NCBI GenBank assembly: GCA_021808925.1 | Contig: JAKBAR010000002.1 | Location: 5,922 to 69,921 of the forward strand | Source: Pseudomonadota bacterium | Lineage (GTDB): Bacteria; Pseudomonadota; Alphaproteobacteria; Paracaedibacterales; JAKBAR01 | DNA length: 64,000 nucleotides | Direction: 5' to 3' | Shown: one piece after another, positions 56,794-58,326 of the stretch | Layout: each line of letters opens with the position of its first letter | How positions within the stretch are numbered: the stretch's first letter is position 1 | Translations under genes and position numbers: made by a program | The notes under the pieces: generated by a model | What the model was told of the DNA's origin: nothing | What the model saw: only the letters and a program-made list of their open reading frames with translations | The model's database searches: none

Positions 56794-58326
56794 TCACTCA
56801 TGCTTTAAAATAAGATCTGCAAGTTCTTCATTGTCCTTCCCCACAAGATCAGAGGCTGTTTGCCCTTTGTTATTTTTAATTTTCGGATTCGCACCTTCTG
56901 CTAAGAGAAGTTTGATGATTTTATTTTTATACTCAGGTTTTTTGTATTTGAGCGTCAGTGCCAGATGCAAGGGCGTGTTGCCCTCACTATTTTGCACATT
57001 CACACCACATCCTTTTTGAATAAGCTCACGGATCTCATTGAGATATTTCTCAATACTCTCAGGGCTCATCCCCCAAGAGAAACGCTCGATAGCCGCCTCA
57101 AGAACCGTTTTTCCAGAGGCATTACGAATATCCCAATTCGGATTATAGGCCTCTATAACCTTAAGCATTTCTGGCTTAGGGATCGCTTTATGTAAAAGCG
57201 GTTGACCCAAAGCATCTTTTGCATTCACATCCGCCCCCTCGCTTAAAAGCTTATCCAATTCCTTTGCATTGTCTTCATAGCACGCCCAAAACAGAGGCGG
57301 AGGAAGTGTCGTGATCGGCTCATCCTTAGAGTCTTTAAGCAACGGCGCGTACTCTGTCTTAATCGTTTGCCAATAGGGATAATGCTCGATCAACCACAGA
57401 TAAAGATTTTTATCCCCGTACACTTTATCGCGCTTAAGGTGAACCGTTTCATACACGTCAGAAGATAGATTTTTATAAACAGGCACAGGGTGGGGGGCCG
57501 TGTTCGCAATGTCTATTATTTCATAATCTTCTGTGTACGCCAGCGGTAGATTTAAAAGTTTTCCATCAGTTTTTCTCAGCAAAAAAGAGGGCTGATGACG
57601 CCAATTATTATCGTCTCCCTGGATAAGAAACGGGGCTTTTGTTTCGAGAAGAAGATCTTTTAACCCTACTCCTGGCACAGGAAATCCTTGCATCATCATA
57701 AATCCATTTTTATCCAAAAGATCATACGCCTCTTTAAAGGTTCCCACAGGATCATGCAGATGCATAAAACAATAATCAGAAACAATAAGATCAAATGTCC
57801 CAACAGGATCTATGCCTATTTTTTTAAAACTTTCTGTGAGATTTTCAATTTTAAACCCTCCAATCATGCGGTGAGTCGCACGGTCACCCTCCTCCACAGT
57901 ATCACCATAATCTTCCCCGCTAATACTGACAATTATGACACTTAGATCATCTGGAAGTGTTTTATCATTATTAATTTTTTTGAAAAGAGCATGACCAAAA
58001 TTTCCCTCTCCAGCACCAATATCCAGAACTAAAAAATCCTTTTTTTTAGGGTAAGCTTTTATCATAGCGTAAAGAAAATCCGAGGCCACAAGACCATTCG
58101 AATATCCAAAAAAGCTATAGGAACTGTTCCCATTAAAATTCCATCCCCCCTTTTTTTGCTCGGAAAGATTTTTAAATGTCGCGTCTATCTCAATCTGAAG
58201 CCATTTAGGCCGATCGTTAGGATCGAGTCCCTTCGTAATTTTTTTATGCGTAATCTCTTTTTTTTCCTCCATCGCTACGGAGGCCGAAAAATTCATCAGA
58301 AATACGAGAAAAAAGAAAATAAACAC
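56794..58326 (-). CDS. exported class I methyltransferase fused to C-terminal ankyrin repeats (effector candidate)
   Basis: 510 aa. Hydrophobic N-terminus MFIFFFLVFLMNFSASVA. SAM motif I VLDIGAGEGNFG and motif II FDLIVSDYCFMHL. Ankyrin repeats (GADVNAKDALGQPLLHKAI; GCGVNVQNSEGNTPLHLAL; GANPKIKNNKGQTASDL). Confidence 0.75.
   Translation of the reverse strand: MFIFFFLVFLMNFSASVAMEEKKEITHKKITKGLDPNDRPKWLQIEIDATFKNLSEQKKGGWNFNGNSSYSFFGYSNGLVASDFLYAMIKAYPKKKDFLVLDIGAGEGNFGHALFKKINNDKTLPDDLSVIIVSISGEDYGDTVEEGDRATHRMIGGFKIENLTESFKKIGIDPVGTFDLIVSDYCFMHLHDPVGTFKEAYDLLDKNGFMMMQGFPVPGVGLKDLLLETKAPFLIQGDDNNWRHQPSFLLRKTDGKLLNLPLAYTEDYEIIDIANTAPHPVPVYKNLSSDVYETVHLKRDKVYGDKNLYLWLIEHYPYWQTIKTEYAPLLKDSKDEPITTLPPPLFWACYEDNAKELDKLLSEGADVNAKDALGQPLLHKAIPKPEMLKVIEAYNPNWDIRNASGKTVLEAAIERFSWGMSPESIEKYLNEIRELIQKGCGVNVQNSEGNTPLHLALTLKYKKPEYKNKIIKLLLAEGANPKIKNNKGQTASDLVGKDNEELADLILKHE

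Follow-up and report, generated by a model that had tools for sequence, protein, structure and literature searches.

The DNA analyzed here, referred to as the window, is a stretch of 64,000 nucleotides from contig JAKBAR010000002.1 of assembly GCA_021808925.1 (positions 5,922 to 69,921), derived from an alphaproteobacterium placed in the order Paracaedibacterales. On its minus strand, an open reading frame (ORF) at 56794 to 58326 runs from a GTG start codon (58324 to 58326) to a TGA stop codon (56794 to 56796) and encodes 510 amino acids, as the initial annotation of this sequence had reported. Its product combines a predicted N-terminal signal peptide, a class I S-adenosylmethionine (SAM)-dependent methyltransferase domain, and a C-terminal block of ankyrin repeats. 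With slightly better than even confidence, we interpret it as a SAM-dependent methyltransferase that is secreted by a protist-associated alphaproteobacterium and guided by the ankyrin repeats, and thus as a candidate host-targeting effector.

Start codon and predicted export

The GTG codon, which is the first codon of the predicted signal peptide, has a Shine-Dalgarno-like AAGG 8 nt upstream (58335 to 58338, minus strand; read from the sequence). The ORF cannot extend further in the 5′ direction because a TAG lies two codons upstream. An alternative ATG at codon 11 has no purine-rich motif upstream by direct reading of the sequence. In five public contigs of metagenome-assembled genomes (MAGs; NCBI/ENA), the identical gene is annotated from this ATG as a protein of 500 amino acids (P0001), and the 510-amino-acid form is present in one Logan record (P0273). 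The choice determines the fate of the hydrophobic N terminus described in the initial annotation: it is present if translation starts at the GTG, and it is absent from the 500-amino-acid form, in which the hydrophobic h-region (58297 to 58326, minus strand) is removed. We accept the GTG as the likely start because the AAGG motif is found at the GTG and not at the ATG and because homologues of the same subclade carry signal peptides at the same place.

The predicted Sec-type signal peptide comprises residues 1 to 18 (MFIFFFLVFLMNFSASVA; 58273 to 58326, minus strand), with cleavage between A-S-V-A and M. Its h-region, FIFFFLVFL, lies within the usual length of 7 to 15 residues and reaches Kyte-Doolittle 9-residue means of up to 3.4, and the c-region has small residues at positions −3 (S) and −1 (A). 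Equivalent signal peptides are found in the nearest homologues (P0002, P0003, P0006, L005, L006, P0122, and P0132), with cleavage sites such as SSCLA/MEAA in P0002, SAGAFS/MEPA in L006, TSSALA/KLNP in L005, and STGSFA/LDPS in P0122 (the slash marks cleavage). The sequences of these peptides differ, but their position is the same, immediately before the conserved L-D-x-x-x-R-P motif with which the catalytic domain starts. The window protein is therefore likely to carry a Sec-type signal peptide, and the export proposed in the initial annotation gains support from the signal peptides at the same position in the subclade and from the AAGG upstream of the GTG. Between the signal peptide and the catalytic domain lies a short, charged, K/E-rich segment (residues 19 to 30; 58237 to 58272, minus strand), which has a low predicted local distance difference test score (pLDDT) in both structural models and is variable in the family alignment.

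If the ATG at codon 11 were the true start, the protein would have no signal peptide and could be a cytoplasmic enzyme performing ordinary bacterial methylation. We regard this as very improbable. The 500-amino-acid form was indeed called on five public contigs and the gene is flanked by housekeeping genes (tilS, der, and the nuo and atp operons), but the AAGG motif is well spaced for the GTG and has no counterpart at the ATG, and the signal peptides of the subclade homologues are unambiguous and identically placed. Further, as described below, sister genomes lack the gene at this site, no well-known free-living species was found to have a family member, and fusions to ankyrin repeats and to an F-box recur within the family.

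Catalytic domain and ankyrin repeats

Homology, AlphaFold2, and Foldseek delimit a family-specific class I SAM-methyltransferase domain at residues 31 to 336 (57319 to 58236, minus strand). Generic Pfam models (Methyltransf_31, Methyltransf_23, Methyltransf_12, Methyltransf_11, and Methyltransf_25) match residues 96 to 214, and three of them pass their gathering scores: Methyltransf_31 with 31.6 bits (cutoff, 27), Methyltransf_23 with 27.9 bits (cutoff, 27), and Methyltransf_11 with 25.5 bits (cutoff, 21.2). An AlphaFold2 model of residues 19 to 340, built with 61 family sequences, has a pLDDT of 92.6 and a predicted template modeling score (pTM) of 0.91. In this model, an N-terminal helix following the invariant R39-P40 leads into a loop containing W62, G66, and Y70, then into a seven-strand Rossmann core (residues 96 to 251; 57574 to 58041, minus strand; strand order taken from the model), and finally into a beta-rich C-terminal subdomain (residues 252 to 336; 57319 to 57573, minus strand) that bears Y264, G304, and a GDK-LY-W motif. 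The strings quoted in the initial annotation are all present, MFIFFFLVFLMNFSASVA at residues 1 to 18 and, for the methyltransferase, VLDIGAGEGNFG at residues 100 to 111, FDLIVSDYCFMHL at residues 178 to 190, and LLDKNGFMMM at residues 203 to 212, and the Rossmann SAM-methyltransferase core that was read from them is borne out by the Pfam scores and the structural matches.

The C-terminal beta subdomain is modeled with block pLDDT values of 85 to 97, falling to 67 in the last two residues, and is conserved throughout the family, including in stand-alone forms of 340 to 370 amino acids. What had been described as a spacer of about 120 amino acids between the methyltransferase and the ankyrin repeats (residues ∼215 to 340) consists of the last Rossmann strands and this conserved, confidently modeled subdomain, i.e., of part of the catalytic domain itself.

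All of the top 50 Foldseek matches in the PDB are class I methyltransferases or enzymes of the same fold (spermidine synthase and the SpnF cyclase), with probabilities of 0.97 to 1.00, a best E value of 2.7e-6, and a query TM-score (template modeling score) of ≤0.39. They include UbiG, the N-terminal domain of MnmC, AprA MT2, CurJ, OvoM, and CARNMT1. The structural comparison that the initial annotation recommended thus returned a class I fold, and the closest named subfamily that it was meant to reveal did not emerge, all matches being generic at these TM-scores. Among NCBIfam methyltransferase models, the best match is BioC, at 31.6 bits against a cutoff of 185. Together, the seven-stranded Rossmann-like fold, motif I with its strand 2 acid, and the Pfam scores above threshold place the domain in class I.

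Motif I reads D102-I-G104-A-G106 and is followed by an acidic residue, E138, after strand 2; the other core residues are F158 and E161 after strand 3, D179 at strand 4, and H189-x-x-D192-P-x-G195-T. Across 170 family domains, D102, G104, G106, E138, E161, and D179 are 91 to 100% conserved, and every one of them is kept in the window protein, which also matches the consensus at 33 of the 37 positions conserved at ≥85%. To judge from these alignments, the enzyme is probably active, because the SAM-binding positions are conserved and all present. A dead enzyme, acting purely as a binding or scaffold protein in which the fold serves as a sensor of SAM or another ligand or as a second binding surface, would account for the departures of the window protein from consensus near motif I (GAGEGNFG rather than GAGNFQWG) and at two further positions (C150A and Q199E). 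Given the complete retention of residues that are conserved family-wide, we consider loss of activity highly improbable.

Motifs diagnostic of particular methyltransferase classes were inspected by eye in the family alignment. The double-E and THW loops of protein arginine methyltransferases (PRMT) are absent, as is the (D/N)PP(Y/F/W) motif of N-methyltransferases. The (D/E)xx(Y/F) motif of seven-beta-strand (7BS) lysine methyltransferases has a counterpart in the window protein, D184-x-x-F187, but the family does not conserve D184, and the motif was rejected as evidence of substrate class.

The catalytic domain is joined by a flexible linker, PITTLP (residues 337 to 342; 57301 to 57318, minus strand), to an ankyrin-repeat domain at residues 343 to 510 (56797 to 57300, minus strand), which is supported by Pfam, PDB matches, and modeling. 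In an AlphaFold2 model of the full-length protein, pLDDT is <50 across residues 331 to 342, the methyltransferase core is confident, and residues 343 to 510 form five helix pairs with block pLDDT values of ∼76 to 95. The repeats lie at residues ∼343 to 372, 373 to 405, 406 to 447 (with an insertion), and 448 to 486, followed by a cap at residues 487 to 510, giving a total of 4 to 5 where the initial annotation had counted at least three; the strings that it quoted are located at residues 363 to 381, 439 to 457, and 478 to 494. Over residues 345 to 507, the scores exceed the Pfam thresholds (in parentheses) for Ank_2 (E = 2.7e-12, 47.5 bits [27.3]), Ank (E = 4.8e-12, 45.8 bits [21.1]), Ank_4 (E = 1.7e-10, 41.3 bits [22.7]), and Ank_5 (E = 1.8e-9, 38.2 bits [27]), and matches to DARPins and ankyrin proteins of the PDB reach E values down to 3.6e-25. 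With tandem helix pairs of ∼33 residues scoring above these thresholds, the domain is that of an ankyrin-repeat protein, and profile matches to both ankyrin repeats and a methyltransferase were thus recovered, as the initial annotation had anticipated.

Family, organism, and proposed role

The initial homology search was swamped by ankyrin proteins. phmmer with the window protein matched P0002 to P0006 and P0008 (E = 2.6e-60 to 9.2e-25), which share a domain of ∼330 residues, are 31 to 44% identical to the window protein over that domain, and have an ankyrin tail in some cases only. Searching 1.84 billion representative proteins with a profile of this domain yielded 827 clusters, defined at 50% identity, at an E value of ≤1e-3 (641 at ≤1e-10 and 445 at ≤1e-30), with members ranging from 194 to 1565 amino acids. 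The family signature is L-D-x-x-x-R-P ... W-x-x-N-G ... LDIGAG ... GE ... FKIE ... H-x-x-DPVGT ... GDK-LY-W, and the window protein matches the family along the whole domain of ∼310 residues, so that both the N-terminal element and the C-terminal beta subdomain are covered. As a separate observation on clustering, the 90%-identity cluster of P0001 includes four unrelated-looking fragments of 42 to 53 amino acids, one of them named from Paenibacillus alvei, which are probably a clustering artifact.

These comparisons indicate that the catalytic domain represents a distinct family, corresponding to no named family within the class I superfamily. No family-specific model was found in Pfam or NCBIfam. 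The family profile matched none of the PDB sequences significantly (best E = 0.0045), the weak matches being phosphoethanolamine N-methyltransferases; matches in BFVD were generic; and a viral contig scan and a plasmid tblastn search returned no relative. Members carry generic names in their source records (“SAM-dependent methyltransferase” and “ankyrin repeat protein”), and literature searches covering Chlamydiae, Rhabdochlamydia, Paracaedibacter, and Legionella returned no description of the family or the architecture, which agrees with the view in the initial annotation that the architecture is uncharacterized. A “methyltransferase” (296 amino acids) and an “ankyrin” protein (201 amino acids) with signal peptides in “Ca. 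Bodocaedibacter” were considered and rejected, being separate and different proteins.

Ankyrin repeats are present in 44 of the 105 top representatives (∼42%), with no other recurrent Pfam domain; the combination of methyltransferase and ankyrin repeats is thus not rare among sampled members. Extensions of >100 amino acids among 148 representatives are C-terminal in 67 and N-terminal in 6, and about half of family members are stand-alone catalytic domains. In P0136 (L007, positions 5185 to 7053), the ankyrin repeats (residues 144 to 259) are N-terminal to the methyltransferase domain, and P0415 has an N-terminal F-box (residues 13 to 39; F-box-like, 25.2 bits against a cutoff of 24.3). The window protein can be aligned with the chlamydial-type P0004 and P0008 across the methyltransferase-ankyrin junction (W-x-P ... 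PPL), which suggests that the C-terminal ankyrin fusion is old and exists beside an independent N-terminal one.

If the secreted enzyme methylated a small molecule, a lipid head-group, or a nucleic acid of the host, the ankyrin repeats might serve only for localization, e.g., to a membrane or organelle. Such a role would suit the best structural matches, which are to small-molecule, tRNA, and polyketide methyltransferases, the weak profile matches to phosphoethanolamine N-methyltransferases, the position of BioC as best NCBIfam methyltransferase match, and the lack of a protein-binding module in roughly half of the members. These matches are, however, weak and generic (TM-score of ≤0.39, E values of ≥0.0045, and 31.6 against 185 bits for BioC), and the repeated independent fusions (C-terminal ankyrin, N-terminal ankyrin, and F-box) point to protein partners. 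A nonprotein substrate therefore seems to us fairly unlikely.

Taxa were read from 14 matching genomes among 185,579 species representatives, the labels of MAGs being those of their depositors. Five of the 14 carry Chlamydiota-lineage labels (Rhabdochlamydia, Chlamydiota, Chlamydiae [two genomes], and Chlamydiales), and the other nine comprise Legionella steigerwaltii, single MAGs labeled Alphaproteobacteria, “Proteobacteria,” and Gammaproteobacteria, three genomes with no classification (“bacterium” or “uncultured bacterium”), and two labeled Verrucomicrobiae and Acidobacteria. In the “Acidobacteria” genome (L016), the family member has as neighbors a citrate synthase of PRK09569 type and a malate dehydrogenase of PRK05442 type, so that the binning is uncertain and the phylum label may be wrong. 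No well-known free-living species turned up among the representatives scanned. The same architecture was not seen to be common in free-living bacteria in a housekeeping capacity, which the initial annotation had named as telling against an effector. Tandem paralogues occur in two genomes, three copies in L012 (5947 to 10300, on a 1.06-Mb contig labeled Verrucomicrobiae) and two in L013 (5971 to 9400, in a Chlamydiae MAG). On these labels, the family appears to be common to Chlamydiota, Legionellales-type gammaproteobacteria, and Holosporales-type alphaproteobacteria.

In identity clustering, the window protein fell, together with the loci of the Alphaproteobacteria MAG, into a subclade of 18 representatives; Sec-type signal peptides are present in at least 12 of these and an ankyrin motif in 11. 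The main clade of 126 representatives, which includes all Chlamydiota-labeled loci, mostly lacks signal peptides and has N termini rich in S, T, and N. The member in L. steigerwaltii (L018, 6010 to 7908; 632 amino acids) has an N-terminal methyltransferase domain, lacks a signal peptide, and ends in a region of ∼400 amino acids without a Pfam match; its gene lies between rpoD and dnaG. The species is culturable, and the protein is a candidate substrate of the Dot/Icm system. Across the family, one catalytic module thus appears to have been combined with different delivery signals and eukaryote-type targeting modules. Because the module occurs both with and without Sec signals, the periplasm cannot be the common site of action of the family. 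This variable Sec signal, taken with the ankyrin and F-box fusions, is the strongest argument for action in the eukaryotic cytosol.

The main rival to a secreted effector concerns the bacterial envelope. The Sec-exported protein might be retained in the periplasm, where its ankyrin repeats would bind an envelope protein and its catalytic domain would methylate a bacterial protein or lipid. The signal is of Sec type, no feature of the protein specifies passage across the outer membrane, and Rickettsia RARP-1 provides a precedent for a periplasmic ankyrin protein with a Sec signal (bioRxiv 10.1101/2022.02.23.481736). The situation would resemble that of RARP-1 or the rickettsial self-methylation of the outer-membrane protein OmpB, and host SAM could enter the periplasm of a cytoplasm-dwelling symbiont through porins. 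Against this, most family members, including the Chlamydiota-labeled clade and the Legionella member, lack a signal peptide, an F-box fusion is sensible only in the eukaryotic cytosol, and the gene is accessory, being absent from sister genomes. In addition, we know of no periplasmic SAM-dependent methyltransferase. We judge retention in the periplasm to be unlikely.

The organism can be placed through the housekeeping content of the window, which includes the nuo operon, the F0 atp operon, der, tilS, and others. Among named sequences, Der is most similar to those of “Ca. Paracaedibacteraceae” MAGs (57 to 59% identity), “Ca. Odyssella thessalonicensis” (57%), and “Ca. Paracaedibacter symbiosus” (54%). 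All described members of the Paracaedibacteraceae live in the cytoplasm of protists (PMC11909080). In the sister genome L022 (Der 70% identical), the nuo-der order is kept and the genes downstream of der are unrelated; unrelated genes likewise follow der in L019 (Der 75% identical). Neither genome has a family member at the syntenic site downstream of der, and the methyltransferase-ankyrin gene is regarded as accessory because of this absence.

We propose the following mechanism. Translation from the GTG would yield an 18-residue Sec-type signal, a 306-residue class I domain, a linker of 6 to 12 residues, and 4 to 5 ankyrin repeats. The Sec pathway would deliver the protein to the periplasm, and some further route would release it across the outer membrane. 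Because the nearest named relatives live free in the host cytoplasm, release would bring the enzyme directly into the host cytosol, where SAM is available. There the ankyrin repeats may capture a host protein, keeping it or its compartment beside the catalytic domain, which would methylate it. The case for an effector made in the initial annotation is strengthened by the taxa of the relatives, the alternative fusions, the tandem paralogues, the accessory status of the gene, and the relationship to protist symbionts, insofar as sequence comparison can speak to function.

Several points weigh against this interpretation. The positively charged n-region typical of signal peptides is missing, as there is no K or R before the h-region (the signal peptide of the homologue L006 likewise has none), and the public annotators chose the downstream ATG, which eliminates the signal peptide. 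A Sec signal is in any case atypical of type III and type IV substrates and fits a periplasmic protein, such as RARP-1, equally well. A Pfam survey that recovered the housekeeping genes found no secretion-system genes within the window. In the catalytic domain, the window protein has A150 and E199 at positions where the family consensus is C (86%) and Q (91%), respectively. Neither sequence nor fold identifies the class of substrate, the nearest folds being those of small-molecule, tRNA, and polyketide methyltransferases with weak TM-scores. The labels Verrucomicrobiae and Acidobacteria (2 of 14 genomes) do not denote host-associated lineages, or those genomes may be misbinned. Finally, the placement of the organism is approximate, as it depends on one marker (Der) at 54 to 59% identity.

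A broader proposal, which we advance tentatively and consider possible rather than probable, is that the family is a large one of host-directed protein methyltransferases, with ∼450 or more clusters at 50% identity, exchanged among the three major lineages of protist-associated intracellular bacteria (Chlamydiota, Legionellales-type gammaproteobacteria, and Holosporales-type alphaproteobacteria) and refitted for delivery and targeting. Its N-terminal lid (R39/W62/Y70) and its C-terminal beta subdomain could then be determinants of a new class of substrate. The refitting would consist of a Sec signal in one clade, signal-less N termini of type III or type IV style elsewhere, ankyrin repeats at either end, and an F-box. 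If host directed, the family would add to the known effectors a catalytic module that abounds in environmental chlamydiae and in other symbionts of protists and would represent a natural experiment in rewiring one enzyme to different secretion routes and targeting domains. The family profile could help to pick out candidate effectors when MAGs from uncultured symbionts are screened, and the L. steigerwaltii member provides a genetically tractable entry point.

Other features of the window are as follows. Between the convergent stops of the methyltransferase-ankyrin gene and a 160-amino-acid ORF (56255 to 56737) lies a perfect 9-bp hairpin, AGGTGCCTC-8 nt-GAGGCACCT (56744 to 56769), with a folding free energy of −16.5 kcal/mol on the plus strand (z = −5.3) and −20 kcal/mol on the minus strand (z = −2.9). 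It is a possible bidirectional terminator, although it was not called by a terminator consensus scan because no U-tract follows it; the promoter and terminator scan gave no signal beyond shuffle expectation. The methyltransferase-ankyrin gene has a GC content of 0.40 (0.38 at third codon positions), compared with 0.42 to 0.49 for housekeeping neighbors, and nearby orphan genes are similar. As the GC content is only slightly below that of the housekeeping neighbors and similar to that of the nearby orphans, it is no decisive sign of recent transfer.

Three orphan genes without a Pfam match flank der (53326 to 54015 and 54081 to 54707 on the minus strand and 56255 to 56737 on the plus strand), and their N termini resemble signal peptides or a lipobox (ISIGC; MLTCFLLPAFTNDSFA; MKKLYLITFLSLGLLSSPVTTAFA). 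These genes and the methyltransferase-ankyrin gene may form a small patch of exported-looking, lineage-specific proteins between the nuo operon and tilS; different orphan genes occupy the der-flanking site in the sister genomes. Elsewhere in the window, a 206-amino-acid ORF (4809 to 5429, plus strand) matches Vps53_N, from a subunit of the eukaryotic GARP tethering complex (E = 9.5e-7, 28.6 bits against 26), and could be another eukaryote-like symbiont protein or a coiled-coil artifact. A thiamine pyrophosphate (TPP) riboswitch (57.5 bits; gathering score, 54.3) lies at 10917 to 11035 on the plus strand, immediately before the ORF at 10973 to 11860 and overlapping its listed start; this ORF has no Pfam match and may be an unrecognized thiamine-related transporter.

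Comparison with known systems

Methylation of host proteins by intracellular bacteria is an established and sparsely sampled phenomenon, with RomA/LegAS4, LpDot1, the chlamydial SET protein NUE, and NleE among the known cases. RomA/LegAS4, the SET-type H3K14 methyltransferase of Legionella pneumophila, has the same domain order as the window protein, with the methyltransferase N-terminal and the ankyrin repeats C-terminal, and both proteins come from bacteria linked to life inside protists. Roughly half of the contacts that RomA/LegAS4 makes with its substrate come from the ankyrin repeats, without which it does not methylate (PMC10653858), and the mechanism proposed above follows this model. 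The catalytic domains are not homologous, that of the window protein being a class I seven-strand Rossmann fold and that of RomA a SET domain. The window protein has no Pfam match to SET at an E value of ≤1, and the NCBIfam model T4SS_AnkI/LegAS4 scores 18.7 bits against a cutoff of 550, in the ankyrin region only. In agreement with Pfam, the structural model, and Foldseek, these results uphold the class I rather than SET assignment of the initial annotation, and because the SET fold is lacking, the protein lies outside the RomA/LegAS4 family. The two also differ in delivery, since the window protein has a Sec-type N-terminal signal and RomA is a Dot/Icm type IV substrate.

LpDot1 is a virulence factor of L. 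pneumophila that has a class I fold and methylates nonhistone proteins of the host (bioRxiv 10.64898/2026.01.11.698932). It resembles the window protein in being a class I SAM-dependent enzyme of an intracellular bacterium, but it belongs to a different family of the same superfamily: the window protein has no Pfam match to DOT1, no DOT1 structure is among the top 50 Foldseek matches in the PDB, and ankyrin repeats are not mentioned in the text of the LpDot1 paper (bioRxiv 10.64898/2026.01.11.698932). With the generic families Methyltransf_23, Methyltransf_31, Methyltransf_11, Methyltransf_12, and Methyltransf_25, the window protein shares motif I (GxGxG), the strand 2 acid, and the H-x-x-D-P helix cap after strand 4. 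These models cover residues 96 to 214 only, and the family's N-terminal element (L-D-x-x-x-R-P, W62, G66, and Y70) and C-terminal beta subdomain are unmatched in Pfam, NCBIfam, and PDB sequences.

Among ankyrin proteins, RARP-1 of Rickettsia was shown to be periplasmic and not secreted (bioRxiv 10.1101/2022.02.23.481736). It shares with the window protein the ankyrin repeats, an N-terminal Sec signal, and an origin in an obligate intracellular alphaproteobacterium, but it has no enzymatic domain and is a model for retention in the periplasm rather than a relative. In Holospora, which also belongs to the Holosporales, a periplasmic protein is released into the host nucleus (PMC9866348); together with RomA/LegAS4 and LpDot1, it is a precedent in favor of the proposed mechanism. 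The best NCBIfam matches of the window protein are to the Legionella Dot/Icm effectors AnkY/LegA9, AnkG/LegA7, AnkX, and AnkH, in the ankyrin region only (E = 2e-12 to 6e-6); with scores of 25 to 46 bits (14 to 46 bits over the Legionella Ank effector equivalogs as a whole) against cutoffs of 500 to 1400, the likeness is one of general ankyrin similarity. Ankyrin-guided and class I methyltransferase effectors are thus each already known, and what is new is their combination in a large unnamed family, in an architecture that a specialist would expect in protist symbionts.

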